Below, in pieces: positions 13,747 to 63,291 of a DNA stretch of 64,000 nucleotides. The DNA comes from a virus: IMG/VR virus record IMGVR_UViG_3300042549_010246, positions 20,706 through 84,705 of that record. One strand, written 5' to 3'. The translations under genes were made by a program, and so were the position numbers. The notes beneath the pieces are model-generated. The model searched no databases. It saw nothing but the letters and a program-made list of their open reading frames with translations, and was not told where the DNA came from. Each line of letters opens with the position of its first letter. Within the stretch, counting starts at the first letter, position 1.

Positions 13747-14568
13747 ATGAGAGAACCATTATTGGGCGTAGCCGTCGGAAAGAAAGGGGTAGGGAAAACC
13801 TTTACAACCAATAGGGTGATTAAACAATATGTGATGGGTAATCCCGCTTCGGGAATTATGCCAAGAAAAGTTTTGATTTTAGATGCAAACGATGAATATA
13901 CTGAGTATAAGGCAATTGCATTAAAGGATTTGATGTTGTTTAGTGTACACCCTTTGGTTGAAGCAAGAAGAATTAGACCGATTCACCCCGACGGTAAAAA
14001 AATGACCTTGGATGATTTGGCTGCTACGTTGAATTATATTTTGGAGGTATTTTCAGGGGGCCTATTATTGATTGAAGACATTAATCGATTTACTTCTGAT
14101 TTTATGCCACAAGATTTAATGGGAGCGATTGCGACGAATCGACATCGTGACTTGGACATCATTTTACACTATCAAGGTATAGGTCGTATTGGAACGAAGG
14201 TATGGCAAAATATCAATTGGCTAAGGATGCATAAAATTACGGAGTCCGCAATCAGGCACGCCAAAAAGTTTGAAGATAAATATGAGATAATCCGTATATG
14301 CGAATTGATGGTAAACATTCAGTATTTTTTGGGTAACGAAAGGACTTTTCAGTACATCGATTGTGAGAATATGTGTTTTCAAGGTAAGGTGGATGAAAAA
14401 CTATTTGCAGATGCTTGTAAGCAATATTTGGAGGAAAATTATCGTAGAATTATTTCACCACTTTTACAGATTCGTGGTGTGGGTGATAAAAAGAAATTTA
14501 CTGCAGATACCGCAATGAAGTCTGAGATGGAAAGATTGCGTAAAATGTATTTAAAAAGGCAAGTGTAA
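13747..14568 (+). CDS. FtsK/HerA-superfamily (A32/PRD1-P9-like) genome packaging ATPase
   Basis: Walker A GKKGVGKT near the N-term, Walker B LLLIED, RH...IILHYQ (Arg finger plus Gln sensor); 273 aa with no nuclease domain. Confidence 0.75.
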   Translation: MREPLLGVAVGKKGVGKTFTTNRVIKQYVMGNPASGIMPRKVLILDANDEYTEYKAIALKDLMLFSVHPLVEARRIRPIHPDGKKMTLDDLAATLNYILEVFSGGLLLIEDINRFTSDFMPQDLMGAIATNRHRDLDIILHYQGIGRIGTKVWQNINWLRMHKITESAIRHAKKFEDKYEIIRICELMVNIQYFLGNERTFQYIDCENMCFQGKVDEKLFADACKQYLEENYRRIISPLLQIRGVGDKKKFTADTAMKSEMERLRKMYLKRQV

Positions 14569-24964: not shown

Positions 24965-25728
24965 CCAATATTTTAACCACGAGTTTAGGAAGAAACATTA
25001 ATACCGTAGAGGGTAATGGTCTTGCTATATTCGTTGACGACACGGATTTCGTGTTGAAGTTAAAAGACGTTGATGGCAATATACAACCTGTAACAGACTT
25101 CACAGGTAGCGGTGGAACGAGCGGTGGTGGAATACAATCCATCAATGCCTTGACAGCACCCGCGCAATTTTTGGTGACAGGTACTTCAGGAAATGATTTT
25201 GCGGTACAGTCTTCAGGCAATACACATACCTTTAATTTGCCAAATGCGAGTACAAGCGCACGAGGTGTAGTTAGCACGGGCCCACAAACAATCAAAGGGA
25301 TAAAAACATTTACAGACAATGCATTTTTTCAAGGCGATGTTGATATTTTAGGTACGCTTACAGCGGAAGCAAAATCGTTCTTGATTCCACACCCCGACCC
25401 TGACAAACAAGGGTGGGATTTACAACACGGAAACTTGGAGGGTGGCGAACACGGTATTTATCACCGTGGCCGTCTTCAGGGGACAAATATGATATATCTA
25501 CCTTCATATTGGAAGTTTTTGGTGAGTCAGCATACCATTACGGTACACTTGACAAGTGCCAAAGGCAACTTCAATTATTTCGTAGAAGATGTGACTTTAG
25601 AAACTATTAGAATTGCAAAATCCGAGGGTGATTGGTACTCTTATGATTGCTATTTTATAATTCACGCTGAAAGACGAGATATTGGCAAATTGAAGGTGGA
25701 AATTACACCTCAAGAAAAGCAATATTGA
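24961..25728 (+). CDS. fibre/spike-like protein
   Basis: N-term paralogous to previous gene (EGNGLA..); ASTSARGVV..QTIKGIKTF fibre motif; C-term KSFLIPHP...LEGGEHGIYHRG. Confidence 0.65.
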   Translation: MTNILTTSLGRNINTVEGNGLAIFVDDTDFVLKLKDVDGNIQPVTDFTGSGGTSGGGIQSINALTAPAQFLVTGTSGNDFAVQSSGNTHTFNLPNASTSARGVVSTGPQTIKGIKTFTDNAFFQGDVDILGTLTAEAKSFLIPHPDPDKQGWDLQHGNLEGGEHGIYHRGRLQGTNMIYLPSYWKFLVSQHTITVHLTSAKGNFNYFVEDVTLETIRIAKSEGDWYSYDCYFIIHAERRDIGKLKVEITPQEKQY

Positions 25729-27704: not shown

Positions 27705-27714
27705 AATTAAATAT

Positions 27715-40600: not shown

Positions 40601-43600
40601 GAGCAAATGGTTCAAGTGGCTCAAGTGGAACAAGTGGTTCTTCAGGAAGCGCAGGTTCAACAGGGTCATCAGGTTCATCAGGAACTTCGGGTTCGAGCGG
40701 TACAAGTGGTTCAACAGGTTCAAGCGGCTCTACGGGCTCAAGTGGGTCTACGGGTACATCGGGTTCAAGCGGTTCAAGCGGAACTTCGGGAGTAAATGGT
40801 TCAAGTGGTTCATCAGGAACAAGTGGTAGTGCAGGTTCAAGTGGAACAAGTGGTTCTGCGGGTTCATCAGGAACATCAGGCTCTGCAGGCTCTTCGGGAA
40901 CTTCAGGCACAGCGGGTTCAAGTGGAACATCAGGAACACGTGGTTCTTCAGGTTCATCAGGCTCTACAGGTTCTTCAGGTACTTCGGGTTCATCAGGAAC
41001 AAGTGGTAGCACGGGTTCATCAGGCTCTACAGGTTCAAGCGGAACGTCGGGCTCATCAGGAACATCAGCATCAAGCGGAAGTTCAGGAAGCGCGGGTACA
41101 TCGGGCTCAAGCGGAACTTCAGGAGCAAATGGCTCGTCAGGTACTTCGGGCTCTTCAGGAAGTGCGGGCTCAAGCGGTTCAACAGGTTCTTCGGGCACAT
41201 CAGGCTCAAGCGGTACATCAGGAAGCGCGGGTTCAAGTGGTTCTACAGGTTCTTCGGGAACAAGCGGTAGCGCAGGTTCTTCAGGCACATCGGGTTCTGC
41301 AGGCTCGTCAGGCACGTCAGGTGCAAATGGCTCAAGTGGTACTTCGGGGTCTGCGGGTAGTGCGGGTTCATCGGGCTCTACGGGTTCATCAGGGACATCA
41401 GGTTCAAGCGGTACATCAGGAAGCGCAGGTTCTTCAGGCTCTACAGGTTCTTCAGGAACGAGTGGTAGCGCGGGTTCTTCAGGTACATCAGGTTCTGCGG
41501 GCTCTTCAGGCACATCAGGTGCAAACGGTTCAAGTGGTACAAGCGGAAGCGCAGGTTCAAGCGGTTCTACGGGTTCGAGCGGTACGAGCGGGTCAAGCGG
41601 AACAAGTGGTAGTACAGGTTCAAGCGGTTCAACAGGCTCAAGTGGAACAAGCGGAAGCACAGGCTCTTCAGGCACATCGGGCTCGGCAGGTTCTTCAGGA
41701 ACATCAGGCTCGGCAGGTTCTTCAGGAACATCAGGCACAGCAGGTTCGAGTGGTACTTCAGGAACACGTGGTTCTTCAGGTTCATCAGGTTCTACAGGAA
41801 CGAGCGGTTCAAGCGGAACAAGCGGTAGCACAGGTTCAAGCGGTTCAACGGGTTCGAGCGGAACAAGTGGAAGTACAGGTTCTTCAGGCTCTACAGGCTC
41901 AAGTGGAACATCAGGTTCAAGCGGAACAAGTGGAAGCACAGGTTCAAGCGGCTCAACGGGTTCAAGTGGTACTTCGGGTTCATCAGGAACATCAGCATCA
42001 AGCGGAAGTTCAGGAAGTGCGGGTACCTCAGGTAGTTCAGGCACTTCAGGGGCAAATGGGTCGAGTGGCTCAAGCGGAACAGCAGGTTCTTCAGGAAGCG
42101 CAGGTTCTTCGGGTTCTACAGGTTCTTCAGGAACAAGCGGTTCATCAGGAACAAGTGGTAGCGCAGGTTCTTCAGGCTCTACAGGCTCAAGCGGAACAAG
42201 CGGTAGCGCAGGTTCATCAGGCACATCGGGTTCTGCAGGCTCTTCAGGCACATCAGGTGCAAATGGTTCAAGTGGCACAAGCGGTTCAAGCGGAAGCGCA
42301 GGTTCTTCGGGTTCTACAGGAAGTTCAGGAACCTCAGGTTCAAGTGGCACAAGTGGTAGCACAGGTTCAAGCGGGTCAACAGGTTCAAGCGGAACGAGCG
42401 GTAGCGCAGGTTCTTCAGGAACATCAGGCTCGGCAGGTTCTTCAGGAACATCAGGCACAGCGGGCTCTTCAGGCACGTCAGGCACAGCAGGTTCAAGTGG
42501 TACTTCGGGAACACGTGGTTCTTCAGGTTCATCAGGTTCTACAGGAACAAGCGGTTCAAGCGGAACAAGTGGAAGCACAGGCTCAAGCGGCTCTACAGGC
42601 TCAAGTGGTACTTCGGGTTCGTCAGGAACATCGGCATCAAGTGGAAGTTCAGGAAGTGCGGGTACCTCAGGTAGTTCAGGCACTTCAGGGGCAAATGGCT
42701 CGAGTGGCTCAAGCGGAACATCAGGGTCTTCAGGAAGCGCAGGTTCTTCAGGTTCTACAGGTTCTTCGGGAACAAGCGGTTCATCAGGAACAAGTGGTAG
42801 CACGGGCTCAAGCGGTTCTACAGGCTCAAGTGGGTCTACGGGAACATCGGGCTCAAGCGGAACTTCAGGGGTAAATGGGTCAAGTGGTTCTTCAGGAACT
42901 TCGGGTTCTGCGGGCTCATCAGGAACGTCAGGTTCTGCGGGCTCTTCGGGAACGAGCGGAAGCGCAGGTTCAAGCGGAAGCACAGGTTCATCAGGTTCTA
43001 CAGGCTCATCAGGAACGTCGGGTTCTGCGGGCTCATCAGGAACGTCAGGTTCTGCGGGCTCTTCGGGAACTTCAGGCACAGCAGGTTCAAGTGGAACATC
43101 AGGAACTCGAGGTTCTTCAGGTTCATCAGGTTCTACAGGCACTTCAGGCTCAAGCGGAACAAGTGGAAGCACAGGTTCAAGCGGGTCAACGGGCTCAAGC
43201 GGAACAAGTGGAAGTACAGGTTCAAGCGGTTCGACAGGTTCAAGTGGAACAAGTGGAAGTACAGGTTCATCGGGTTCTACGGGTTCAAGCGGTACGAGTG
43301 GCTCATCAGGAACATCGGCATCAAGCGGAAGTTCAGGAAGTGCAGGTACGTCAGGTAGTTCAGGAACATCAGGAGCAAACGGCTCATCAGGCTCATCAGG
43401 AACTGCAGGTTCGTCAGGTAGCGCAGGTTCTACAGGTTCTTCAGGTTCCTCAGGAACTTCGGGTTCATCAGGAACAAGCGGAAGCGCGGGTTCAACAGGT
43501 TCATCGGGCTCAAGTGGGTCTACGGGAACATCGGGCTCAAGTGGCTCAAGCGGTACATCAGGTGCAAATGGCTCGAGCGGCTCAAGCGGAACAAGCGGTA

Positions 43601-46600
43601 GTGCGGGCTCATCAGGAACTTCGGGTTCTGCAGGCTCATCAGGAACGTCAGGTTCTGCAGGCTCTTCGGGAACTTCAGGTACAGCGGGGTCAAGTGGAAC
43701 GTCAGGAACGCGCGGTTCGTCAGGTTCATCAGGTTCAACGGGTTCTTCAGGAACTTCAGGCTCAAGCGGAACAAGTGGAAGTACAGGTTCATCAGGTTCA
43801 ACGGGTTCAAGCGGAACCTCAGGCTCATCAGGAACATCGGCATCAAGCGGAAGTTCAGGAAGCGCGGGAACATCGGGCTCAAGCGGAACTTCAGGGGCTA
43901 ATGGCTCGAGTGGAACAAGCGGTTCGAGCGGAAGCGCGGGTTCTTCAGGTAGCACAGGTTCATCGGGAACATCAGGCTCATCGGGTACGAGCGGAAGCAC
44001 GGGTTCTTCAGGTTCTACGGGTTCAAGCGGAACAGCGGGTTCAAGCGGTACTTCGGGTTCTTCAGGCTCAAGTGGCTCTGCAGGTACATCGGGCGCAAAT
44101 GGTTCTTCAGGAACTTCAGGTTCAAGTGGAAGCGCAGGCTCATCAGGGTCTACGGGCTCAAGCGGAACGAGTGGCTCTGCGGGTTCATCAGGAACAGCAG
44201 GAACTTCGGGGTCTTCGGGTACTTCAGGTACAGCAGGTTCAAGTGGTACTTCGGGTACACGGGGTTCATCAGGTTCTTCAGGGTCTACAGGAACTTCGGG
44301 TTCAAGCGGAACTTCAGGGGCAAATGGCTCAAGTGGAACGAGTGGCTCAAGTGGAAGCGCGGGCTCATCAGGCTCTACGGGCTCAAGCGGAACAAGTGGT
44401 AGCACGGGTTCTTCGGGCTCTACAGGGTCATCAGGAACAAGTGGTTCTTCAGGTACATCAGGCTCAAGCGGTAGCGCGGGTTCAAGCGGTAGCGCAGGAA
44501 CATCAGGAGCAAATGGCTCAAGTGGAACGAGTGGTTCTGCAGGAAGCGCAGGTTCTTCGGGTAGCACAGGTTCATCAGGAACTGCAGGTTCAAGTGGTAC
44601 GGCAGGTTCTTCGGGTAGTGCAGGCTCAAGCGGGTCTACGGGTTCAAGCGGAACTTCGGGTTCAAGTGGCTCATCAGGAACATCAGGAGCGAATGGCTCA
44701 AGCGGTTCAAGCGGAACAAGTGGTTCTGCGGGCTCTTCAGGCACATCAGGAACTGCAGGCTCAAGCGGAACATCAGGAACTCGAGGTTCTTCAGGTTCAT
44801 CAGGTTCTACAGGCTCAAGTGGGTCTACGGGTACGTCAGGCTCGAGCGGCTCAAGCGGAAGCGCGGGTACCTCAGGGGCAAACGGCTCAAGTGGTACAAG
44901 TGGGTCTTCAGGAAGTGCAGGTTCTACAGGGTCTTCGGGTTCATCAGGAACATCGGGTTCAAGCGGAACAAGCGGAAGTGCAGGTTCAAGCGGCTCTACA
45001 GGCTCAAGTGGCTCTACGGGCACTTCAGGCTCAAGTGGCTCGAGCGGAAGTGCAGGCACATCGGGTGCAAATGGCTCAAGTGGTACAAGTGGTTCTGCAG
45101 GAAGTGCGGGTTCAAGTGGGTCTACGGGTTCGTCAGGAACTGCAGGTTCCTCAGGAACGAGCGGTAGTGCGGGCTCAAGCGGCTCTACAGGCTCAAGTGG
45201 GTCTACAGGTACGTCAGGTTCCTCAGGCTCTTCAGGCACATCAGGAACTGCAGGTTCAAGCGGAACATCAGGAACTCGAGGTTCTTCAGGTTCTTCAGGT
45301 TCTACAGGCTCAAGTGGCTCTACGGGTACTTCAGGTTCAAGCGGAAGCGCGGGTACATCGGGTGCAAACGGTTCTTCAGGAACATCAGGCTCAAGCGGAA
45401 GTACAGGTTCAAGTGGCTCTACAGGGTCAAGTGGAACATCAGGTTCTTCAGGAAGTGCGGGTTCTACAGGTTCTTCAGGGTCTTCAGGAACAGCGGGTTC
45501 ATCAGGAACATCGGCATCAAGCGGAAGTTCAGGAAGCGCAGGTACTTCAGGGGCCAACGGTTCTTCGGGTACTTCGGGCTCATCAGGAAGCGCGGGTTCT
45601 ACGGGTTCATCAGGCTCAAGCGGAACAGCGGGCTCATCAGGAAGCGCAGGTTCAAGTGGTTCTACGGGTTCAAGCGGCACCGCAGGTTCAAGCGGAACTT
45701 CAGGTACACGCGGTTCATCAGGCTCAAGCGGTTCAGCGGGTACTTCAGGTGCGAATGGTTCAAGTGGTTCAAGCGGAACGAGTGGCTCTTCAGGAAGTGC
45801 AGGTTCAACAGGTTCGAGCGGTTCTACGGGTACATCAGGCTCAAGCGGCTCAAGTGGAACGAGCGGCTCTTCAGGAAGTGCAGGTTCAACAGGTTCGAGC
45901 GGTTCTACGGGTACATCAGGCTCAAGTGGCTCAAGTGGAAACACGGGTGCTGCGGGTTCATCAGGAACTTCGGGTTCTTCAGGAAGCGCAGGGTCAAGTG
46001 GTTCTACGGGTTCAAGCGGAACGAGCGGCTCATCAGGTAGCGCAGGCTCTACGGGTTCAAGCGGGTCTACGGGTACTTCAGGCTCAAGCGGCTCAAGCGG
46101 AAATACGGGTGCGGCAGGTTCTTCAGGAACGAGCGGCTCATCAGGTAGCGCAGGCTCTACGGGTTCTTCGGGTTCATCAGGAACTGCGGGTTCTTCAGGT
46201 ACGTCAGGTACAAGAGGTTCATCAGGCTCAAGTGGTTCTACGGGTTCAAGCGGCTCTACAGGTACGTCAGGCTCAAGCGGTTCAAGTGGAAACACGGGTG
46301 CGGCAGGTTCTTCAGGAACGAGCGGCTCATCAGGAAGCGCGGGTTCTACGGGTTCTTCAGGTTCTACGGGAACTTCGGGTTCGAGCGGTTCAAGTGGAAA
46401 CACGGGTGCGGCAGGTTCTTCAGGAACATCGGGCTCAAGCGGTTCGAGCGGTTCAAGTGGAAACACAGGTGCGGCAGGTTCTTCAGGAACATCGGGCTCA
46501 AGCGGGTCAAGCGGAAACACGGGTGCAGCGGGTTCTTCAGGTACTTCGGGCTCAAGCGGTTCAAGTGGAAACACAGGTGCGGCAGGTTCTTCAGGAACTT

Positions 46601-47634
46601 CGGGTTCGAGTGGAAACACAGGTGCAGCAGGTTCATCAGGAACATCGGGCTCAAGTGGAAACACGGGTGCTGCAGGTTCTTCAGGTACTTCGGGCTCAAG
46701 TGGAAACACAGGTGCAGCAGGTTCTTCAGGCACAAGTGGTGTTAGTGGTGCAGCGGGTTCTTCAGGCACAAGCGGTGTCAATGGTGCGGCAGGTTCTTCA
46801 GGAACTTCGGGCGCGAATGGTGCGGCAGGGTCATCGGGTACGTCAGGAACAAGAGGTTCTTCAGGAACATCAGGTGCAAACGGTGCGAACGGTTCATCGG
46901 GTACAAGCGGTGTCAATGGTGCGGCAGGTTCTTCAGGAACTTCGGGCGCGAATGGTGCGGCAGGGTCATCGGGTACGTCAGGAACAAGAGGTTCTTCAGG
47001 AACATCAGGTGCAAACGGTGCGAACGGTTCATCGGGTACAAGCGGTGCAAACGGTGCAGCGGGTTCTTCAGGAACGTCAGGCTCAAGTGGTAATACAGGT
47101 GCTGCAGGTTCTTCAGGTACGAGCGGTACGAGCGTAGCCGTGAGCGGTACAACAAACAGAATCGTTAAGTTTACGGCATCTACGACCATAGGTAACGCAA
47201 ACGCGTCCGACGATGGAACGACATTCGAAGTCTTGAATACAGTTGGATTTAAGGCGGCCAAGTCGTTAGCAGTAGGTGCTTTGTCACCGTCAGCAACCAC
47301 AGGTCGAATTGATGCTTCAAACGACATCGTAGCGTTCTCTACATCAGACAAACGCTTCAAAGAAAACGTGAAGCGAATTGAAAACGCCCTCGAGAAAATC
47401 AAGACAATCGGTGGATACTCATTCGATTGGCGCGAGGAAGGCTTCGAGGCTCACGGATTCAAGGGAAGTGATGTCGGAGTAATCGCGCAAGAAATCGAGT
47501 CAGTGTTGCCCGAAATCGTGAAGGTAAAAGCAAACGGATTCAAGGGTGTACGTTATGAAAAAATCATCGCCTTGGTAATTGAAGCAATCAAGGAGTTGGA
47601 TGATAAAGTGGAAAAACTAAAAAACAATCAATAA
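31618..47634 (+). CDS. giant 5338-aa Gly-X-Y (Ser/Thr) fibre with internal C1q/BclA-like domain and C-terminal peptidase S74 chaperone
   Basis: Gly at nearly every third residue; TYDTV..NGIS...QITVQYSGIYEFTFS domain; SDKRFKENV...GVIAQEIE..LPEIV...VRYEKII..IEAIKEL. Confidence 0.85.
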   Translation: MAKNILITPYRNSTNPLELPKIDFINGSTAITLQVEETSQSLTFVGSAGTLLQINNDLTGTTISTKNIAITGVIKNTGITSNSGLNDFVVVDIATGQFYYRSAPTGTSGSSGQSGTSGTSGANGSSGTSGASGSSGTSGANGSSGTSGANGSSGTSGVNGTSGTSASSGTSGANGSSGTSGDSGSSGTSGANGSSGTSGANGSSGTSGANGSSGTSGNSGSSGTSGANGSSGTSGESGSSGTSGSNGSSGTSGSSGTSGNSGSSGTSGDSGSSGTSGANGTSGTSGESGSSGTSGNSGSSGTSGNSGSSGTSGANGSSGTSGASGAEITDGWDWGTPVNSTKMYSSNGNLDSSTVLLNISETSLSLTDYASQFALMGVGSRITTRGGLFAANVTNWEVTSVTDAGTYYEFGVVYLSGTQWTPTSGDDILCDFAIAGKSGSSGTAGTSGQNGSSGTSGANGTSGTAGTTGSSGTSGAGVANYYAQYSSSQSQPLLAVNTPQVVTYDTVEIENGISFSGGQITVQYSGIYEFTFSPQVEKTQGGTAVNVDFFIRKNGFDVIRTDSILGLVSNSSTQLPFVALTLELLQNDFIELLFASTTTFVQLTAVGAKTTPFIAPAAPSIIVSLKNIGVAAVAYTSTSGTSGQSGTAGVSGSSGTSGSTGSSGTSGESGTSGTSGSTGSSGTSGENGSSGTSGSTGSSGTSGESGSSGTSGENGSSGTSGSAGSSGTSGSTGSSGTSGESGSSGTSGSSGTSASSGTSGSTGSSGTSGSAGSSGTSGSTGSSGTSGESGSSGTSGSTGSSGTSGESGSSGTSGESGSSGTSGDSGSSGTSGESGSSGTSGESGSSGTSGESGSSGTSGTSASSGTSGSTGSSGTSGENGSSGTSGSTGTSGSSGSSGTSGENGSSGTSGESGTSGTSGSSGSTGTSGSAGTSGSTGTSGSTGSSGTSGSSGTSGENGSSGTSGSAGSSGTSGENGSSGTSGSSGTSGSTGTSGESGTSGTAGSSGSTGTSGSAGTSGSTGTSGSAGSSGTSGSSGTSGENGSSGTSGSTGSSGTSGSTGTSGSTGTSGSSGSTGSSGSSGESGTSGSTGTSGSTGSSGTSGESGTSGTTGSSGSTGSSGTSGSSGTSASSGTSGSSGINGSSGTSGSTGTSGSAGTSGANGSSGTSGSAGSSGTSGSTGSSGTSGSSGTSASSGSSGSSGSTGSSGTSGSSGTSGANGSSGTSGSAGSSGTSGSTGSSGTSGSSGTSASSGSSGSTGSSGTSGSAGSSGTSGANGSSGTSGSSATSGSAGSSGSAGTSGSSATSGSSGSSGTSGSSGTSGANGSSGTSGSSGTSGSTGSSGTSGANGSSGTSGSSGTSGSAGSSGSTGSSGTSGSSGTSGSAGSSGSTGSSGTSGSSGSSGTSGANGSSGTAGSSGTSGSSGTSGSAGSSGTSGANGSSGTAGSSGTSGSAGSSGSAGTSGANGSSGTSGSSGSSGSTGSSGTSGSSGSTGTSGSSGTSASSGTSGSSGSAGTSGANGSSGTSGSSGSSGSTGSSGTSGANGSSGTSGSAGSSGSTGSSGTSGSSGTSGSTGSSGSAGTSGSSATSGSSGSSGTSGSAGTSGANGSSGTSGSSGTSGSTGSSGSAGTSGANGSSGTSGSTGSSGTSGSAGSSGSTGSSGTSGSTGSSGSTGSSGTSGSSGTSGSAGSSGSAGTSGANGSSGTSGSSGTSGNAGSSGTSGSSGSSGSAGTSGSTGSSGTSGSAGSSGTSGSAGSSGSTGSSGTSGANGSSGTSGSSGTSGSTGSSGSSGSTGSSGTSGSSGTSGSTGSSGSTGSSGTSGSAGSSGTSGANGSSGTSGSSGTSGSTGSSGTAGSSGTSGTRGSSGTSGSTGSSGSTGSSGTSGSSGTSGSAGSSGSAGTSGANGSSGTSGSSGTSGSTGSSGSSGSTGTSGTAGSSGTSGSAGSSGSTGSSGSSGTAGSSGTSGANGSSGTSGSSGSSGSTGSSGTSGSSGTSGSAGSSGSTGSSGSSGTAGSSGTSASSGSAGTSGSSGTSGANGSSGTSGSAGSSGTSGSSGSAGTSGINGSSGTSGSSGTSGSSGSSGSTGSSGTSGSAGSSGSTGSSGSSGTAGSSGTSGANGSSGTSGSAGSSGTSGSSGTSGTAGSSGTSGTRGSSGTSGSTGSSGSTGSSGTSGSSGTSGANGSSGTSGSSGTSGSAGSSGTSGSSGTSGSTGSSGSTGSSGTSGSAGSSGTSGSAGSSGTSGANGSSGTSGSAGSSGSTGSSGTSGSSGTSGSAGSSGSTGSSGTSGSAGSSGSTGSSGSSGTAGSSGTSGANGSSGTSGSSGSAGSSGSTGSSGTSGSSGTSGSTGSSGSTGSSGTSGSSGTSASSGSSGTSGSAGSSGTSGANGSSGTSGSAGSAGSSGSTGSSGTSGSSGTSGSTGSSGSTGSSGTSGSSATSGSAGSSGTAGSSGSSGTSGANGSSGTSGSAGSTGSSGTSGSSGTSGTAGSSGTSGTAGSSGTSGTRGSSGTSGSTGSSGSTGSSGTSGSSGTSGANGSSGTSGSSGSAGSSGSTGSSGTSGSSGTSGSTGSSGSTGSSGTSGSSATSGSAGSSGTSGSAGSSGTSGANGSSGTSGSAGSSGSTGSSGTSGSSGTSGSAGSSGSTGSSGTSGSAGSSGTSGSAGSSGSAGSSGTSGANGSSGTSGSAGSSGSTGSSGTSGSSGTSGSTGSSGSTGSSGTSGSAGSSGTSASSGSSGSAGTSGSSGTSGANGSSGTSGSAGSAGSSGSTGSSGTSGSSGTSGSTGSSGSTGSSGTSGSSGTSGSAGSSGTSGSSGTSGTAGSSGTSGTRGSSGTSGSTGSSGSTGSSGSTGTSGSSGSSGTSGANGSSGTSGSAGSSGSTGSSGTSGSSGTSGSAGSSGSTGSSGTSGSSATSGSAGSSGTAGSSGSSGTSGANGSSGSSGTSGSSGSSGSTGSSGTSGSSGTSGSAGSSGSTGSSGTSGSSGTSASSGSSGSAGTSGSSGTSGANGSSGSSGTSGSSGSAGSTGSSGSSGTSGSSGTSGSTGSSGSTGSSGSTGTSGSSGSSGTSGVNGSSGSSGTSGSAGSSGTSGSAGSSGTSGSAGSSGTSGTAGSSGTSGTRGSSGSSGSTGSSGTSGSSGTSGSTGSSGSTGSSGTSGSSGTSASSGSSGSAGTSGSSGTSGANGSSGTSGSSGSAGSSGSTGSSGTSGSSGTSGSAGSSGSTGSSGTSGSAGSSGTSGSAGSSGTSGANGSSGTSGSAGSAGSSGSTGSSGTSGSSGTSGSAGSSGSTGSSGTSGSAGSSGTSGSAGSSGTSGANGSSGTSGSAGSSGSTGSSGTSGSSGTSGSTGSSGSTGSSGTSGSTGSSGTSGSAGSSGTSGSAGSSGTSGTAGSSGTSGTRGSSGSSGSTGTSGSSGTSGSTGSSGSTGSSGTSGSTGSSGSTGSSGTSGSSGTSGSTGSSGSTGSSGTSGSSGTSASSGSSGSAGTSGSSGTSGANGSSGSSGTAGSSGSAGSSGSTGSSGTSGSSGTSGSAGSSGSTGSSGTSGSAGSSGTSGSAGSSGTSGANGSSGTSGSSGSAGSSGSTGSSGTSGSSGTSGSTGSSGSTGSSGTSGSAGSSGTSGSAGSSGTSGTAGSSGTSGTAGSSGTSGTRGSSGSSGSTGTSGSSGTSGSTGSSGSTGSSGTSGSSGTSASSGSSGSAGTSGSSGTSGANGSSGSSGTSGSSGSAGSSGSTGSSGTSGSSGTSGSTGSSGSTGSSGSTGTSGSSGTSGVNGSSGSSGTSGSAGSSGTSGSAGSSGTSGSAGSSGSTGSSGSTGSSGTSGSAGSSGTSGSAGSSGTSGTAGSSGTSGTRGSSGSSGSTGTSGSSGTSGSTGSSGSTGSSGTSGSTGSSGSTGSSGTSGSTGSSGSTGSSGTSGSSGTSASSGSSGSAGTSGSSGTSGANGSSGSSGTAGSSGSAGSTGSSGSSGTSGSSGTSGSAGSTGSSGSSGSTGTSGSSGSSGTSGANGSSGSSGTSGSAGSSGTSGSAGSSGTSGSAGSSGTSGTAGSSGTSGTRGSSGSSGSTGSSGTSGSSGTSGSTGSSGSTGSSGTSGSSGTSASSGSSGSAGTSGSSGTSGANGSSGTSGSSGSAGSSGSTGSSGTSGSSGTSGSTGSSGSTGSSGTAGSSGTSGSSGSSGSAGTSGANGSSGTSGSSGSAGSSGSTGSSGTSGSAGSSGTAGTSGSSGTSGTAGSSGTSGTRGSSGSSGSTGTSGSSGTSGANGSSGTSGSSGSAGSSGSTGSSGTSGSTGSSGSTGSSGTSGSSGTSGSSGSAGSSGSAGTSGANGSSGTSGSAGSAGSSGSTGSSGTAGSSGTAGSSGSAGSSGSTGSSGTSGSSGSSGTSGANGSSGSSGTSGSAGSSGTSGTAGSSGTSGTRGSSGSSGSTGSSGSTGTSGSSGSSGSAGTSGANGSSGTSGSSGSAGSTGSSGSSGTSGSSGTSGSAGSSGSTGSSGSTGTSGSSGSSGSAGTSGANGSSGTSGSAGSAGSSGSTGSSGTAGSSGTSGSAGSSGSTGSSGSTGTSGSSGSSGTSGTAGSSGTSGTRGSSGSSGSTGSSGSTGTSGSSGSAGTSGANGSSGTSGSSGSTGSSGSTGSSGTSGSSGSAGSTGSSGSSGTAGSSGTSASSGSSGSAGTSGANGSSGTSGSSGSAGSTGSSGSSGTAGSSGSAGSSGSTGSSGTAGSSGTSGTRGSSGSSGSAGTSGANGSSGSSGTSGSSGSAGSTGSSGSTGTSGSSGSSGTSGSSGSAGSTGSSGSTGTSGSSGSSGNTGAAGSSGTSGSSGSAGSSGSTGSSGTSGSSGSAGSTGSSGSTGTSGSSGSSGNTGAAGSSGTSGSSGSAGSTGSSGSSGTAGSSGTSGTRGSSGSSGSTGSSGSTGTSGSSGSSGNTGAAGSSGTSGSSGSAGSTGSSGSTGTSGSSGSSGNTGAAGSSGTSGSSGSSGSSGNTGAAGSSGTSGSSGSSGNTGAAGSSGTSGSSGSSGNTGAAGSSGTSGSSGNTGAAGSSGTSGSSGNTGAAGSSGTSGSSGNTGAAGSSGTSGVSGAAGSSGTSGVNGAAGSSGTSGANGAAGSSGTSGTRGSSGTSGANGANGSSGTSGVNGAAGSSGTSGANGAAGSSGTSGTRGSSGTSGANGANGSSGTSGANGAAGSSGTSGSSGNTGAAGSSGTSGTSVAVSGTTNRIVKFTASTTIGNANASDDGTTFEVLNTVGFKAAKSLAVGALSPSATTGRIDASNDIVAFSTSDKRFKENVKRIENALEKIKTIGGYSFDWREEGFEAHGFKGSDVGVIAQEIESVLPEIVKVKANGFKGVRYEKIIALVIEAIKELDDKVEKLKNNQ
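33529..47133 (+). repeat. about 13.6 kb of degenerate 9-nt (Gly-X-Y) coding repeat
   Basis: GSS/GTS/GST/GSA/GAN triplets with synonymous scrambling. Confidence 0.95.
46768..47047 (+). repeat. exact 135-bp tandem duplication
   Basis: 46768-46902 identical to 46903-47037. Confidence 0.85.
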
Positions 47635-48341: not shown

Positions 48342-48599
48342 ATGGAAAAAATATTATTAACCGAAGAGGAATTAAATGAAAGCAGAATCATTAGCCAAAT
48401 TCAGACCGATTTGAATTCACACGTAACAAAGTTTACAAGAGAAATAGAATCGCTAAAATTGAAACGTAAATACGCCCTTGAAGAATTGAATGAATTGGAT
48501 GAAAAAAACAAAGTCTTTTTTAAGGGAATCACCAACAAATATGGGTATGTTAAAATAAACCTTGAAACAGGCGAAGTAACCCCAATAGATGAAAAATGA
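48342..48599 (+). CDS. coiled-coil hypothetical protein
   Basis: Coiled coil ending KYGYVKINLETGE; TAAATTTG at 48313. Confidence 0.65.
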   Translation: MEKILLTEEELNESRIISQIQTDLNSHVTKFTREIESLKLKRKYALEELNELDEKNKVFFKGITNKYGYVKINLETGEVTPIDEK

Positions 48600-49069
48600 T
48601 AGTTGTTTTTTATGGTAAAAGAAACTCAGGAAAGACAACACTGTGTCGTGAGTTTTACGGTTGGGTGAAGCAAAATTTACCTCTTAGGTGTCACTATTTA
48701 GATGCAGATAAACTGCGATTTGTTTATGGGTTAAAAGGGTTTTCAGAACAGACGGAAAGGGCTTTAATACAAAAAGCGATGGAAATATCGCGTTATGAGG
48801 AAAGTTTAAATGACGTTGTTTTGATTAGTATTTCTTTTGCATATAAAGACCAAAGAGCAATATTCGAAGAAAACAAAGGGATTTTATGGGTTCCGTTAAC
48901 ACACGATGAGTCTAAAAGACCTACCAATAAAAAAGAATTTGAAAATCCTGAATTTGAAAAATTAGAGAATGAAATTAACACATCTGAAAATGATGTTAAA
49001 TCGGCATTGAATATGGTAATTCAACGCTACAAAGATTTTTGTGTAACTTCGCAATATAAGGGGAAATGA
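48596..49069 (+). CDS. adenylylsulfate kinase (CysC)-like P-loop kinase
   Basis: FYGKRNSGKTT, LDADKLR, GFS, ISISFAYKDQR. Confidence 0.6.
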   Translation: MIVVFYGKRNSGKTTLCREFYGWVKQNLPLRCHYLDADKLRFVYGLKGFSEQTERALIQKAMEISRYEESLNDVVLISISFAYKDQRAIFEENKGILWVPLTHDESKRPTNKKEFENPEFEKLENEINTSENDVKSALNMVIQRYKDFCVTSQYKGK

Positions 49070-49293: not shown

Positions 49294-49596
49294 ATGCCAA
49301 TACCTGTAGCAATAGCGGCAGCATTAATCACAACGGCAGGTAGTACGGCTGTAGGTGGTTTAGATGTTGTCTCAAAACGAAAACTTGAAAAAAACCTTGC
49401 TAAATTAAACGCTGCGGAGGCAGAGGCTCTTCAAAAGCAATTAGCAAAAGAAAAGGACGCTCAAACCAAATTGATTTTATTGCAGGATGCTGCGGATAAA
49501 GCGCAAAAAAGGAGCACGACGAATATAATTATTGGCTCTACAATAGGTTTAATCGGCCTCATTGCTGCAATTATCGTGTTTAAAAAGAAAAAATGA
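49294..49596 (+). CDS. membrane protein with hydrophobic N- and C-termini
   Basis: Terminal hydrophobic helices, KKKK tail. Confidence 0.7.
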   Translation: MPIPVAIAAALITTAGSTAVGGLDVVSKRKLEKNLAKLNAAEAEALQKQLAKEKDAQTKLILLQDAADKAQKRSTTNIIIGSTIGLIGLIAAIIVFKKKK

Positions 49597-49913
49597 TGGA
49601 GTTTTCAAAAGAAGTAAAAAACGCTGTAATTATTGCAGTTGCGACAATTACTTTATATATGTTGTTAAAACCTAAAAAGAATGGTATAAGTAAGCCTATG
49701 AAGGCTACTAAAGATGAATTGAGTCAAAAACAAAACGCCCGAACTATTTTGGATGCTTACTTAAACGCGGTTGATGCAAAAGAATCACCAACAGCATTGC
49801 AGAAGTTGAATTCAATTTTTGCAGATGAATATTCGATGAAGGTATTTAAAACCAAAAGTGGTAGTTATGTTGCAAGGACTTTAGATGGTAAAGATGTATT
49901 GGTAGCAAAATAA
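49593..49913 (+). CDS. N-terminal TM protein
   Basis: Anchor plus soluble domain. Confidence 0.7.
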   Translation: MMEFSKEVKNAVIIAVATITLYMLLKPKKNGISKPMKATKDELSQKQNARTILDAYLNAVDAKESPTALQKLNSIFADEYSMKVFKTKSGSYVARTLDGKDVLVAK

Positions 49914-50362
49914 TGGCCACGTTCTCTCCAATCATAACGGTTTATCCTAATGACGCAGTAAGAGTTACGAGCGTTTCGGATTTGACTTATGAAACGGTGA
50001 ACGCAAGTGTTGGAACAGGATACTATTACGATTTTAAAAATTTTTATCAGTATTCAACATCCTTAGAACAATTAATTGAACCAATCTACTTGCTCAAATT
50101 TAGTAAACAGGGGGACCGAAATGTTTACTATTTGAATAATACGATTGACCCATATCAAAAATCATCGGCATTGTCTGTAGATGCTGAATATCTTGATTAT
50201 AGATTTGACTCTAACAATGCATTCATACCACGAATACTTGCAAACACATCATTATTTTACCGCTTTGATATTCAAGAACTTAGTAATGAAGATTTTTTGA
50301 CTAAAGGTGAAAGTAATTTTGGATTGATTGATTTTTACGAAAACTACGAAATAGACTTCTGA
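49913..50362 (+). CDS. paralogue of capsid-candidate core (minor capsid protein?)
   Basis: Shares TY, SxSxxQLxExI, TIDPYQ, YRxD, ILAxT in order with 14907-15608. Confidence 0.65.
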   Translation: MATFSPIITVYPNDAVRVTSVSDLTYETVNASVGTGYYYDFKNFYQYSTSLEQLIEPIYLLKFSKQGDRNVYYLNNTIDPYQKSSALSVDAEYLDYRFDSNNAFIPRILANTSLFYRFDIQELSNEDFLTKGESNFGLIDFYENYEIDF

Positions 50363-50724
50363 TGCCCGCCAAAAAAATCATATTGAACATAGAAAATCAT
50401 ACGCCCTATCCTGCGTTAATTTCTATTTTAGGTGGACTTCAAGACCCAAACCAATATAATGTGAATTCCGCAACGGAATACTTATATGATATTGGAAACT
50501 TTAATTGGAATAACTCAAGTACTTGGACAATACAGTTTAAACGAGTTGGAGCAGCAAACTTCAGTATCAAACAAGGTTCTACAGGTGGTAATCCACAACA
50601 ATTTTTAATAGCCCTTAATCTTTCGTCTTTGGGTTTATTTAACTATATCAAAATCAGTGCAAACATTTCGTTGATTTACACTTTCAACGATTATTACGAG
50701 TTTGGTCAACTTACATTAAACTAA
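50362..50724 (+). CDS. protein whose N-term matches the first strands of the capsid candidate
   Basis: KIILNIENHTPYPALISILGG vs PYIIQISNTGSAVANFSVLGS. Confidence 0.55.
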   Translation: MPAKKIILNIENHTPYPALISILGGLQDPNQYNVNSATEYLYDIGNFNWNNSSTWTIQFKRVGAANFSIKQGSTGGNPQQFLIALNLSSLGLFNYIKISANISLIYTFNDYYEFGQLTLN

Positions 50725-50746
50725 AAACCACCCCGAAAGGTGGTTT
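50725..50746. terminator. hairpin between convergent gene blocks
   Basis: AAACCACC-CCGAAA-GGTGGTTT. Confidence 0.6.
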
Positions 50747-50840: not shown

Positions 50841-51626
50841 TCAATCCTCTGTATATGCAAGTTTTGCATATAGTCCCTTTTTCGTAGGCTTTTTGTCATT
50901 TACAATAATAACCCTTTCTTCATCATCGAGAGTCAAAACTGCACCACCCTCAACTTGGTCATCAAAACTTAACGCTCTTGAACCTAAGGAATCTTTTGGC
51001 AACAGTTTCGACAATTGTTTCAGGACGATTTTTTTAAGCATCCAAAATTGACTGTCTTTTGCATCATTGAAATACAATTCATTCCTGTTTGGTAAATTGG
51101 CAACAATAGTTTCTAATTCTTTTTTTGACATCACCTTAAAAACCTTTTCTTCATCGCGGGTTTTTACCATTGCGTAAATGTGAGTAAGCGAAATGGATGT
51201 TCTCAAATCGTCTTTGGGTTTATGTCGTAAAATTGGCTCAAGTCCAAGTTCATAATCAAATTCATCCGCTTCGTGCACAGACTCGCACCAAATCGTTTTT
51301 ACGCCATTATTTCGCATCAGGAGTGTAATCACACCTTTGTATCCCAAAATAGGCTTAATATGCCCCTTATAAGGCAAAAAGAAGAACTCTCCAACAGAAG
51401 GATTGGGACTCAATCCTAATTCTGCGCAATGAATGATTGCCGCAAATAGGTTGCGTGGATTTTTTTGGAAGGCAAAGAGCATTTCTTCATTTCTTCTGAC
51501 TTCAGTTAAAACGACCTGTTTAAATTGCGCAGGTGAAATCGAATGACTTTTTAACAAATCAACCAACACCTTTTGTTCAAAGGTGTCAAGTTGTATGCTG
51601 AATTTAGTTAGTAGTGCGTTATCCAT
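50841..51626 (-). CDS. recT: RecT-family single-strand annealing protein
   Basis: AELGLSPN...FFLPYK....ILGYKG, V.EADEFDY.LG, MLKKIVLKQLSKLLP. Confidence 0.85.
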   Translation of the reverse strand: MDNALLTKFSIQLDTFEQKVLVDLLKSHSISPAQFKQVVLTEVRRNEEMLFAFQKNPRNLFAAIIHCAELGLSPNPSVGEFFFLPYKGHIKPILGYKGVITLLMRNNGVKTIWCESVHEADEFDYELGLEPILRHKPKDDLRTSISLTHIYAMVKTRDEEKVFKVMSKKELETIVANLPNRNELYFNDAKDSQFWMLKKIVLKQLSKLLPKDSLGSRALSFDDQVEGGAVLTLDDEERVIIVNDKKPTKKGLYAKLAYTED

Positions 51627-51633
51627 TTTTATA

Positions 51634-51849
51634 TTATTGCGATTGTAAAATACTAAGAGCCTCTTTCATTAGTCTGACTTTCTTTAAGTCATCCTGTGTG
51701 TACCCGTGAATGTCAAGGATGCGATTAAATGTTGTCATTTTTTGCTTCAGAATGTCAATTGAATCGGACAATGATTCATTTACAAGCAACTCATTTACAA
51801 TTTGTGTGGCTTCTTTACAATCAGGGAAAGGAATAAAATTTTCGTTCAT
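51634..51849 (-). CDS. hypothetical protein
   Basis: 71-aa ORF in minus-strand operon. Confidence 0.6.
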   Translation of the reverse strand: MNENFIPFPDCKEATQIVNELLVNESLSDSIDILKQKMTTFNRILDIHGYTQDDLKKVRLMKEALSILQSQ

Positions 51850-53066
51850 TATGGCTTGGGATTAATATCAATGAGTGATTTTTGACCGATGTGAATGAAT
51901 AAATTGTCTTTGGTTAAAATCTGTTGCCTGTTTGGATATTCATCCGCAAATGTCAATTCCCATCCGTGGTCTTTGTGAAATATTTTATTCTCGAAAACAC
52001 GTCTGCGAAAAATTGAAGGATTGTTACCATAGTTGTTCATTTTAACTTCTTGCCATTTTAAAAATCCATTTTGCATTTCGTAAAAGTGCCTGTAATCTTT
52101 AGGGAAAGGGTTTTTCCAATAATATTCGTTCACAGAAGTTTCGGCTTTAATTTCATCCGTCTGAATATCAAATACCTGTGAAAACATAATTTGGTCAAAT
52201 GCGGAATGCTTTTTCAAATAGTTAATGTGTTTACCCAAATCAAGAGGTCTTACGGATTCCCAATCATCTTCAAGTAAAAATACAAACTCACTTGGACCCA
52301 TCAAATGTTTAATCATATTGAATTTGTCAACGTAATCAAATTGACCATTATTGTTGAAAGTAATCAAATGGGCTTTTTCACCAAACAAGGCATCCAAATA
52401 TAATTCCATTTTATATCGCTCTTCAGAAGTACTTCGGTCATCTAAAACCCAAACTTCATTGAACATTGTACGGTAGTTTGGATTGTGTTTTTGTAGCGAT
52501 TTGAGAGTCCGCATAAAGTAATCAAAACGTCTCCCTGAAGAAATTATCAAGTTAGGGGCAACGTGAGGCTCATAATTAATGTAATAGCCATATTCGTCAT
52601 CTCCGAATAATAACTTCAAATTTGGGTATCGGCTTGCCATTATTTCGGGTGTTAAATCGGGCTGATGGTGTGTCTCATAAATATTGCCTTCATATTCACC
52701 TTGTTCATCTAAATAAGGAACAGCAACTAAACATTTGATGTTGTACGTCTCGATTTGACCCATCAATAATGTTGCATCAGATGGCGTAAGATGTTCAAGT
52801 ACATCTCCCAAAATAAGATAATCATACATTAAAATATTGACTGTCATAATGTTTTGCTGATAAATGGTATTATATTTAGAAGCAAGGTTAAATTGAGCAA
52901 TGTAAGGGTCCCAAATTTCAACAGCATCCATTGGGATTTTTAAAAGGTCTGCATAAGTCCCTGAACCCGCTCCAACATCAAGGACGCGGGGATTTGAGGT
53001 GTTTTGGAGTTCTAAGAGGATGTGCTCTCGAACATTGTGCTTGAATTTATTGTATGAGTATGGCAT
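51849..53066 (-). CDS. class I SAM methyltransferase fused to GT-A (GT2-like) glycosyltransferase
   Basis: VLDVGAGSG, GDVLEHL; VLDDRS, FLLEDDW. Confidence 0.8.
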   Translation of the reverse strand: MPYSYNKFKHNVREHILLELQNTSNPRVLDVGAGSGTYADLLKIPMDAVEIWDPYIAQFNLASKYNTIYQQNIMTVNILMYDYLILGDVLEHLTPSDATLLMGQIETYNIKCLVAVPYLDEQGEYEGNIYETHHQPDLTPEIMASRYPNLKLLFGDDEYGYYINYEPHVAPNLIISSGRRFDYFMRTLKSLQKHNPNYRTMFNEVWVLDDRSTSEERYKMELYLDALFGEKAHLITFNNNGQFDYVDKFNMIKHLMGPSEFVFLLEDDWESVRPLDLGKHINYLKKHSAFDQIMFSQVFDIQTDEIKAETSVNEYYWKNPFPKDYRHFYEMQNGFLKWQEVKMNNYGNNPSIFRRRVFENKIFHKDHGWELTFADEYPNRQQILTKDNLFIHIGQKSLIDINPKP

Positions 53067-53067
53067 A

Positions 53068-53862
53068 TTAGTAAAACACTTGTTTAATTTTGGGTAACAG
53101 GGCGCGTTGAGGGCAAGTCTCGTTTAAATGACATTTGTTGCATCTTTTCATCTCAGGATATGCTTTCCATCCATTTGCTGATTTGATTTCTCTTTTAAGT
53201 GCTTGAGAGACATTTTTCACCCCTTCTAAATGCTCCATCTCCTTGCTTGGGTCTACCAACACTTCAAAAATGCGAACATCCATTGGGTCTTTGGTATTGA
53301 ATACAAAAAAGTAAAAAGGCACATCCGTGGTTTTAAATTTTTCTTTAGCAATAATTTTGTAATGAACTGCCTGAGTCAAAATCTTTTCCTTTTGCTCAAG
53401 GAAGTCTTCGTGCCAACCCATTTCATTCCATTTGTCATCTACCAAGCCCGAATATTTCAAATCGATGATACACTTCTTTCCATTCCACTTTGCAATAATA
53501 TCGGTTGTGCAAGACATATTCAATTTTGAACTCACCAATTTCTTTCCAAAACTGAGAATTTTGATGTTCATCGCTTTGAAAATTGCTTTGCAAAAAATCG
53601 AACTTTGAAATGCTCTTTCGTAATCTTCTGAAAGTTTTTCTTTTGCGGTTCCTTTGTACACTTTATCGGGCTCAGGCGGTGTTCCATCACCATAAGCGGG
53701 AAGTCCTCCCGTGGCCATATATTCGAAATATTGACCAAGTTTCATTGCTTTAGTGGGTGTAGATTGAATACCGTCGAGGTATTTTGCTTTCACAACTAAG
53801 CCACACTCTTCCTTTACCTTGTATTCGGCAAAAGATTTCATAAAGGATTGACTAATTTTCAT
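53068..53862 (-). CDS. PD-(D/E)xK Cas4-like exonuclease
   Basis: TTDII...IIDLKYS, QAVHY, N-terminal Cys plus C-terminal CNKC.....C. Confidence 0.7.
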   Translation of the reverse strand: MKISQSFMKSFAEYKVKEECGLVVKAKYLDGIQSTPTKAMKLGQYFEYMATGGLPAYGDGTPPEPDKVYKGTAKEKLSEDYERAFQSSIFCKAIFKAMNIKILSFGKKLVSSKLNMSCTTDIIAKWNGKKCIIDLKYSGLVDDKWNEMGWHEDFLEQKEKILTQAVHYKIIAKEKFKTTDVPFYFFVFNTKDPMDVRIFEVLVDPSKEMEHLEGVKNVSQALKREIKSANGWKAYPEMKRCNKCHLNETCPQRALLPKIKQVFY

Positions 53863-63206: not shown

Positions 63207-63278
63207 AGCGGGGAAGTGTAGTGGTTGCATTCTTGGCTCATAACCAAGAGGAAGTAGGTTCGATTCCTACCCCCGCTC
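63207..63278 (+). tRNA. tRNA-Met (CAT anticodon; Ile2 not excluded)
   Basis: Acceptor AGCGGGG/CCCCGCT, anticodon arm CTTGG-CTCATAA-CCAAG, T arm GTAGG-TTCGATT-CCTAC; no encoded CCA. Confidence 0.9.
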
Positions 63279-63291
63279 CTAAATTACAAAT

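Follow-up and report, generated by a model that had tools for sequence, protein, structure and literature searches.

The stretch of DNA analyzed in this study (the window, 64,000 nucleotides) comprises bases 20706-84705 of the 84,705-base record IMGVR_UViG_3300042549_010246 of an uncultured lake virus. Two genes on its plus strand, here called A and B, follow each other at the end of an operon (Table 1). A codes for a truncated relative of the 233-amino-acid (aa) protein that is the capsid candidate of this virus, and B for a small protein that recurs as the N-terminal module of longer proteins with adhesin-like ends. The reading proposed here, with a probability of about 0.55, is that the two proteins form an interlocked two-chain vertex or spike-base module of the virion. 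The virus belongs to a group of uncultured lake viruses of 70-85 kilobases (kb) without recognizable tail, portal, or HK97-type genes and with a small jelly-roll coat protein candidate, the family of which comprises hundreds of sequence clusters. In full-text searches of the literature, mostly at abstract level, no description of the group and none of a comparable gene split was found. Neither the A-B region nor the capsid candidate had a match in the phage collection in DNA and protein searches.

The stop codon of the 106-aa gene upstream overlaps with the start of A (TAATG), and homologues of this gene directly precede A or an A-B fusion in the records L031, L039, L042, and G001. The stop codon of A and the start codon of B overlap by one base (TGATG), in agreement with the original prediction, made from the sequence of the window alone, that no frameshift is implied. 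Judged from the sequence, A and B are translationally coupled.

Table 1. Coordinates of genes A and B, the capsid candidate and associated features. Positions refer to the window unless a record is named.
Feature	Position	Strand	Remarks
P-loop ATPase, possible packaging ATPase	13747..14568	+	just upstream of the capsid candidate
Capsid candidate, 233 aa	14907..15608	+	N-terminal arm, then jelly-roll-like beta-sandwich; parent family of gene A
Small protein, 73 aa	49066..49287	+	one hydrophobic stretch; same operon; no Pfam match
Small protein, 100 aa	49294..49596	+	hydrophobic N- and C-terminal stretches; counterparts upstream of A in relatives
106-aa protein	49593..49913	+	N-terminal hydrophobic stretch; conserved directly upstream of A
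Gene A, 149 aa	49913..50362	+	capsid-candidate paralogue without N-terminal arm and first two strands
Gene B, 120 aa	50362..50724	+	N-terminal strand(s) predicted to dock on A, then alpha/beta domain of about 90 aa
Hairpin, 9-pair, terminator-like	50725..50746	.	directly after the stop of B; ends the plus-strand operon, facing the RecT gene
A-B fusion	L031:2956-3828		290 aa
A-B fusion	L039:2501-3373		290 aa; 75-kb metagenome contig
A-B fusion	L042:1465-2337		290 aa

Sequence comparison identifies A as a real truncated paralogue of the capsid candidate. With BLASTP, 25 of 71 residues were found to be identical between A45-114 and candidate residues 125-193 (E-value, E, 3e-4). Profile comparison with hhalign gave a probability of 97.0% (E 9.9e-11) for the A family (15 rows) against 10 orthologues of the candidate and 98.5% (E 2.6e-15) for A against the 118-row candidate family, the latter over 104 columns with A16-122 placed on candidate residues 96-201. 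A hidden Markov model (HMM) of the A family retrieved 127 candidate-family representatives at E < 1e-3, with 36 further domain rows being weaker, and the HMM of the candidate family retrieved 15 of 15 A-family proteins (E 1.8e-8 to 2.5e-5). These 15 homologues of A are 145-149 aa long. The register of the hhalign alignment at E 2.6e-15 is exactly the one read in the original prediction (VRVTS/VTISS … TIDPYQ … YRFD/YRID … RILANT/SILAST), so that the colinearity of both proteins stands. The same is true for the proposed lack of the first strands, as the candidate strands 57-63 and 68-74 have no aligned counterpart in A. The N-terminal arm has none either; just 15 residues precede the aligned core, and the architecture of the full-length candidate, including its residues 1-95, is not found in A. 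Counterparts of strand 96-100, of helix 107-116 and of every later strand are retained. No Pfam match was found for A at E ≤ 0.1, its sole PHROG match was phrog_17948 (E 0.037), and the profiles of A, B, and the candidate found nothing below E 0.13 among PDB sequences.

In a phylogenetic tree, the A family is monophyletic (support 100/99) and separate from nine rows of the capsid family (100/99), so that the duplication is old. The near-identical rows P0002-P0006, P0008, P0011, and P0013 as well as the A protein of L014 were left out of this tree.

The capsid candidate itself was modeled with AlphaFold from the 118-row family alignment, with a predicted local distance difference test (pLDDT) of 88.1 and a predicted template modeling score (pTM) of 0.80. 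The model shows an N-terminal helix, a disordered region at 18-35, and a beta-sandwich starting at residue 57, with strands at 57-63, 68-74, 90-93, 96-100, 119-128, 138-143, 149-154, 167-170, 174-176, 181-187, and 191-203 and a helix at 107-116. A fold search without Foldseek returned modest matches, many of them being viral jelly rolls. The best was the coat protein of grapevine fanleaf virus (GFLV; Z 6.3, root-mean-square deviation (rmsd) 4.9, 121 residues aligned), and further matches were PR772 chain O (Z 5.7, rmsd 3.4, 99 residues aligned), PM2 (Z 5.1), the second barrels found in coat proteins of giant viruses (Z around 5), and phiCjT23 (Z 4.8). Foldseek of the model against the PDB gave nothing at E ≤ 1e-3, and no Pfam or PHROG match was found for the candidate. 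According to the model, a jelly-roll-like fold is likely. The family is large, with 729 cluster representatives found at E ≤ 1e-3 by a profile of 10 orthologues, 81 of them at E ≤ 1e-30, and an identity of 61-91% among the 70-85 kb relatives.

Within the candidate family, two proteins, P0137 (397 aa) and P0183 (411 aa), contain two full copies of the jelly-roll core per chain; in P0137 both domains are matched with E-values of 1.6e-48 and 5.3e-49. These may be natural fusions from single to double jelly rolls, or gene-call joins. Two others, P0195 (346 aa) and P0203 (320 aa), carry an insert of about 100 aa exactly between the first strands and the "VTISS"-type strand, and this insert site is the boundary at which gene A begins. 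They were considered as unsplit forms with B followed by A, which is unsupported by the B profile (E 0.7 and 0.28).

The linkage of A and B was analyzed by scanning, with both profiles, the distinct records that contain DNA next to A. In 19 of 19, both genes are present on the same strand. In eight records, including the window, B directly follows A and its start overlaps with the stop of A, whereas in seven they are separated by one gene for a PPPDE/LRAT-like protein of 152-171 aa with a hydrophobic C-terminus, and in one they are 4 kb apart. In the remaining three, A and B form one 290-aa ORF (open reading frame) in the order A then B (Table 1), and thus the search for fused homologues in related genomes, which had been suggested as a check, was successful. 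The three fusions share 58-72% identity and can therefore not go back to one assembly error. The synteny in L039 is that of the window on both sides, with the 106-aa hydrophobic protein upstream and the convergent genes for RecT and a PD-(D/E)XK nuclease downstream. Record G002, which is 94% complete, is without A, B, and the 106-aa upstream gene, all together; this was treated as a missing end of a linear record and not as evidence.

In the tree of A, the fused clade (99/98) is sister to the separate genes of the window type (99/94) within a clade with a support of 97/91, and the remaining separate-gene forms branch nearer to the capsid-family outgroup. As the fused clade is nested among separate-gene forms, the fusions look derived and not ancestral, and the term "split" used in the original prediction probably has the wrong polarity for the fused forms.

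The PPPDE/LRAT-like (NlpC/P60-type) gene between A and B is located at L012:6097-6573, with counterparts in L013-L015, L033, L037, and L040. Its product matches Pfam PF05903 with E 3e-6, below the cut-off of this family, and may be a virion-associated wall hydrolase. In the lineage with fused genes, the genes for the small membrane proteins are followed by one for an extra 186-aa protein without Pfam match, which lies before the 106-aa gene (L039:1624-2184, L031:2079-2639); it has no counterpart in the window.

Gene B has 13 close homologues of 67-127 aa. For B, no Pfam match at E ≤ 0.1 and no PHROG match were found, and the ESM Atlas returned unnamed clusters only, with no structure. It had been proposed that the start of B matches the strands missing in A. 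The placement of B KIILNIENHTPYPALISILGG on candidate PYIIQISNTGSAVANFSVLGS was indeed the top one in every profile comparison, but it was never significant: hhalign placed B4-32 on candidate residues 55-84 with E 0.072 (probability 0.8%) and, in a second comparison, B4-27 on residues 55-78 with E 0.04 (1.3%). BLASTP gave no match of B at the first strands of the candidate, its best hit (E 0.50) being located elsewhere. An HMM of candidate residues 50-95 was also run against six members of the B family and 1000 shuffles of each. The number of shuffles scoring at least as high as the real sequence was 720 per 1000 for the B of the window and 305, 55, 30, 4, and 3 for the others. By sequence, this part of the proposal is not confirmed: the placement agrees, but lies at E 0.04-0.07, and the B of the window scores no better than its shuffles. 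The suggested comparison of both genes with the candidate by hhalign thus gave a clear result for A (E 2.6e-15) and no significant one for B. The structure models support the further statement that a different domain follows in B.

B was also considered as a diverged copy of A. This idea originated from a MAFFT misalignment and a genafpair run which laid A on B; in joint alignments of fusions, A, and B, MAFFT repeatedly placed the N-terminus of B on that of A. It is not supported by hhalign of the B family against the A family, which gave E 0.26 and a probability of 0.2%.

Using the B profile, 99 longer proteins of 224-1076 aa were found. The B module starts within the first 10 residues in all 99, and none contains an A or capsid-family domain. 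Downstream of B they comprise either a beta-propeller of the NHL/SBBP/SGL type or repeats of DUF285, in some cases accompanied by PKD-like parts. Phage receptor-binding proteins are usually built in this way, with a constant module at the N-terminus and exchangeable, adhesin-like ends. Since B is the invariant N-terminal module of these propeller and DUF285 proteins, the A-B pair is most likely a capsid-embedded spike base. With respect to the vertex/penton or fiber-anchoring capsomer that had been suggested, anchoring fits this architecture, and a location at the five-fold vertex is putative.

The complex of the window's A and B was predicted as separate chains by ESMFold2 with the alignments A2 and A3. 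The interaction prediction score from aligned errors (ipSAE) was 0.87, 0.87, and 0.84 for the pair vs. 0.00 for each of three controls; the mark used for this score is reached by 116 of 157 solved complexes and by 2 of 215 mismatched pairs, a comparison that is approximate, with own alignments being used here. The runs predict 233-256 contacts and agree in at least 83% of them, and B is modeled with a pLDDT of 82-88. No relative by sequence has been solved, so that the score is not a recall of a known complex. The predicted interface comprises A1-22, A100-122, and scattered residues on one side and B3-28, B30-31, B33-44, and B114-120 on the other. The pairs with the lowest error are A15-18 with B9-13 (antiparallel), A7-10 with B38-42, A116 with B8, and A4 with B116-117. 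Conserved columns of B are mildly enriched in this interface (10 of 15 vs. 6.4 expected, p 0.044). The complex prediction of the pair, named as a check in the original prediction, thus places the first strand of B on A.

A second model was obtained with AlphaFold2 (alignment A6) for the fusion in L031, the sequence of which is about 25-30% identical to the window's proteins. Of the A rows, alignment A6 includes only the six distant ones, and in each of its B rows 1-4 residues at the N-terminus are out of place. The model has a pLDDT of 73.8 and a pTM of 0.70, the other four models averaging 60-66. Blocks of the B part reach a pLDDT of 72-95 and those of the A part 43-91, with 91 for the first ten residues. 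The fold matches of this model fall into three classes: sandwiches from model residues 16/27 to 172-189, which take in the first strand of B (163-172); a separate domain at 200-290, which resembles FliD D2/D3 and the outer domains of flagellin; and small sandwiches from 1 to 287-290, consistent with N-terminal strands of A lying on the B domain. A search in BFVD gave low template modeling (TM) score rows only. The ESMFold2 pair and the AlphaFold2 fusion agree, as predictions, on the same arrangement.

Strands B and C, which open the canonical jelly roll, are paired with strands I and H at its end. According to the hhalign alignment, A100-122 corresponds to the last two strands of the candidate (181-187 and 191-203). 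In the prediction, the N-terminal segment of B touches this region, which is the contact expected from complementation. The claim that two chains complete one jelly roll is thereby retained in part: binding through the terminal strands is predicted (ipSAE 0.87), but the predicted exchange is reciprocal, with a strand of A also lying on B.

These results can be combined into the following proposal. A and B would be two chains of one structural unit of the virion. A would go back to a duplication of the jelly-roll capsid candidate, after which the copy lost its N-terminal arm together with the two initial beta-strands. Residues 3-28 or so of B would form a strand segment packing on the first core strand of A (15-18, candidate 96-100) and on its last two strands (100-122), and the N-terminal strand of A (about 4-10) would be laid on the sheet of the alpha/beta domain of B (B38-42, 114-120), the outcome being an interlocked heterodimer. 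That both chains form one interlocked unit is supported by the fusions, the strict co-occurrence, and two concordant predictions, and A-B binding and the geometry of the strands are predicted by the models. The pair would be a base embedded in the capsid, probably at the vertices, which carries a host-recognition spike, and the B of the window would represent a bare adaptor with no distal domain. Such a vertex or host-entry module fits a coat-protein paralogue bound to an adhesin base at the end of an operon for small hydrophobic proteins, with a peptidase-like insert in relatives. A vertex or spike-base role appears as the most likely function, at even odds or slightly better.

Several points weigh against this interpretation. 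Every piece of the structural evidence is a prediction, and strand positions were derived from the listed contacts and from the ranges over which fold matches align, not from coordinates. In the complex, A reaches a pLDDT of only 50-71, and the interface shows no enrichment of its conserved columns (9 of 27 vs. 10.4 expected). The tightest contacts put the B strand beside A15-18, the equivalent of strand D (candidate 96-100), whereas a canonical B strand pairs with I, so that the predicted geometry may differ from that of the parent fold. The N-terminus of B is not significantly similar in sequence to the first strands of the candidate, and the window's B consists of the 120-aa module alone, without a receptor-binding domain. 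For the 233-aa protein, a role in the capsid is deduced entirely from its fold, its family size, and its place beside a weakly matching ATPase, and we infer the five-fold vertex location and the role as spike anchor.

Among the other explanations, the one with the best prospects, though an unlikely one, is that A-B is a component of the shell other than the penton. It could be a second, minor subunit of capsomers or serve for cementing or decoration, assembling together with the 233-aa protein. A is a paralogue of the capsid candidate, and nothing in the present data fixes its position in the shell. Moreover, two related single-barrel coat proteins are known in viruses, e.g., the small and large vertical single-barrel proteins of sphaerolipoviruses, as far as the cited accounts describe them (PMC6414509; PMC12643093). 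This explanation has to accommodate that B heads variable propeller and DUF285 proteins in 99 of 99 longer relatives, which is typical of host recognition. Host-recognition proteins are usually present in few copies per particle, unlike a bulk shell subunit. In addition, A-B is located 34 kb away from the capsid candidate, its neighbors being small membrane proteins, joined by a peptidase-like gene in relatives. Somewhat less probable still is a role of the 233-aa protein other than that of major capsid protein, namely as a penton, a fiber, or an appendage subunit with a jelly-roll fold. A-B would then be a paralogous part of another apparatus, e.g., for genome delivery with the membrane proteins and the peptidase nearby. 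The fold matches of the 233-aa protein are generic (Z ≤ 6.3) and include pentons (PR772 chain O, PM2 P1) as well as Ena appendage subunits, and it has no family annotation. The three small hydrophobic proteins in the A-B operon and the hydrophobic C-terminal tail of the PPPDE/LRAT-like peptidase of relatives would be in line with such an apparatus. However, the large and conserved family (729 representatives, 61-91% identity among the 70-85 kb relatives) and the adjoining ATPase candidate speak for a capsid protein, and a PHROG scan of 27 other ORFs revealed no alternative coat protein.

The least probable of the three alternatives considered, and a rather improbable one, takes A and B as functionally linked neighbors, with the strand exchange being an artifact of prediction and each protein a self-contained domain in loose contact with the other, if in contact at all. 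Predictors tend to place beta-rich chains next to each other at their edges, the model of A has low to moderate confidence, and the genes are non-adjacent in 8 of 19 records. An artifact is hard to reconcile with the score of 0.00 in all three controls, with the same arrangement being obtained by two predictors for sequences of about 25-30% identity (the window pair and the L031 fusion), with three natural fusions, and with the lack of two strands of the parent fold in A. The vertex or spike-base module remains the preferred reading.

The closest described system is the vertex of PRD1/PR772. In PR772, three N-domains of P5 together with two P31 proteins are described to make up the heteropentameric penton base (PMC6750898), and, as far as this account goes, a small single jelly-roll base is combined there with the N-terminal part of a host-recognition spike whose distal domains vary. 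A may likewise be a single jelly roll, being homologous to a protein modeled as a jelly-roll-like sandwich; the confidence of its own model is low to moderate. The systems differ in that the spike N-domain of PR772, as far as described, is a complete P31-like jelly roll in the penton position, whereas B is predicted to donate a strand into A. Furthermore, the spike N-domain is related to the penton protein there, which is not seen for B and A in the hhalign comparison given above, and the base protein here is a paralogue of the coat candidate without two of its strands. A distal host-recognition domain of the PRD1 type is not present in the window's B, whereas relatives carry NHL/SBBP propellers or DUF285 repeats. 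Profile searches in the PDB gave no sequence relation of A, B, or the candidate to P31 or P5.

In chaperone-usher pili, donor-strand complementation takes place, in which an incomplete Ig-like beta-sandwich is completed by the N-terminal strand of another chain to build up a fiber polymer. The likeness is one in principle only, namely an incomplete beta-sandwich completed by the N-terminal strand of another chain; here the fold is derived from a viral jelly roll, the predicted exchange is reciprocal, and the two proteins are different, in contrast to the Ig-like polymer of pili. In adenoviruses, the N-terminus of the receptor-binding fiber anchors in the penton base of the vertex and the distal domains vary. 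There is no homology to this system, in which a tail peptide of the fiber binds to a penton base whose fold is complete and is not predicted to need the fiber for completion. The feature in common with the proposed A-B base is a spike N-terminus anchored in a vertex base. Adenovirus is mentioned in the discussion of the PR772 account (PMC6750898). Finally, residues 200-290 of the fusion, the globular part of B, have their best fold match in FliD D2/D3 (6kty_A, Z 6.5, rmsd 3.1, 88 residues aligned) and also match Vibrio flagellins (Z 5.0-5.5). These Z values are under the trust level of the search tool and no sequence relation was found, so this is a resemblance of fold only.

It is conceivable, though at this stage tentative, that a coat-protein paralogue without its first beta-strands is complemented in trans, a spike or adaptor protein contributing its N-terminal strand and receiving a reciprocal strand, which would be a way of spike anchoring that is undescribed for capsids. 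If so, a variable host-recognition protein would be woven into a subunit of the shell, and together with the tandem domain duplications and loop insertions of the family, a living series from single jelly-roll shells to multi-domain capsomers and vertex complexes would be at hand. With the spike-base genes known, host specificity could be traced to the variable domains on the C-terminal side of the B module. A-B would also provide a natural example of a fold which is divided over two chains, fused in one clade and decorated differently in others, and if confirmed, the pair would be a handle for classifying the group and predicting its hosts.

In the surroundings of these genes, PHROG and Pfam scans of the larger ORFs detected a collagen-like fiber protein, methyltransferases, glycosyltransferases, and a weak HerA/AAA-type ATPase, and no tail, portal, or HK97-type coat genes. 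The ATPase upstream of the capsid candidate has sub-threshold matches only (AAA_22 with E 0.0015, HerA/DUF87 with E 0.0038, and a PHROG terminase with E 0.0011). The window is AT-rich with a GC content of 33-40%, except for an ORF of 5,338 codons (31618-47634) with about 55% GC, in which several frames are open. It is preceded by methyltransferase-like and glycosyltransferase-like genes (25725-31625). Just upstream of the operon genes listed in Table 1, a P-loop protein of 157 aa is encoded (48596-49069), with weak APS-kinase/AAA matches (E 4e-4 to 2.4e-3, all below the cut-off) and a similar counterpart of 160 aa in L014.

On the other side, three genes on the minus strand (50841-53862) converge on the A-B operon. 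They code for RecT (PF03837, E 3.2e-28), a methyltransferase-like protein of 405 aa, and a PD-(D/E)XK nuclease (DUF3799), which ends in a cysteine cluster. Finally, a tRNA-Met gene with the anticodon CAT is located at 63207-63279.

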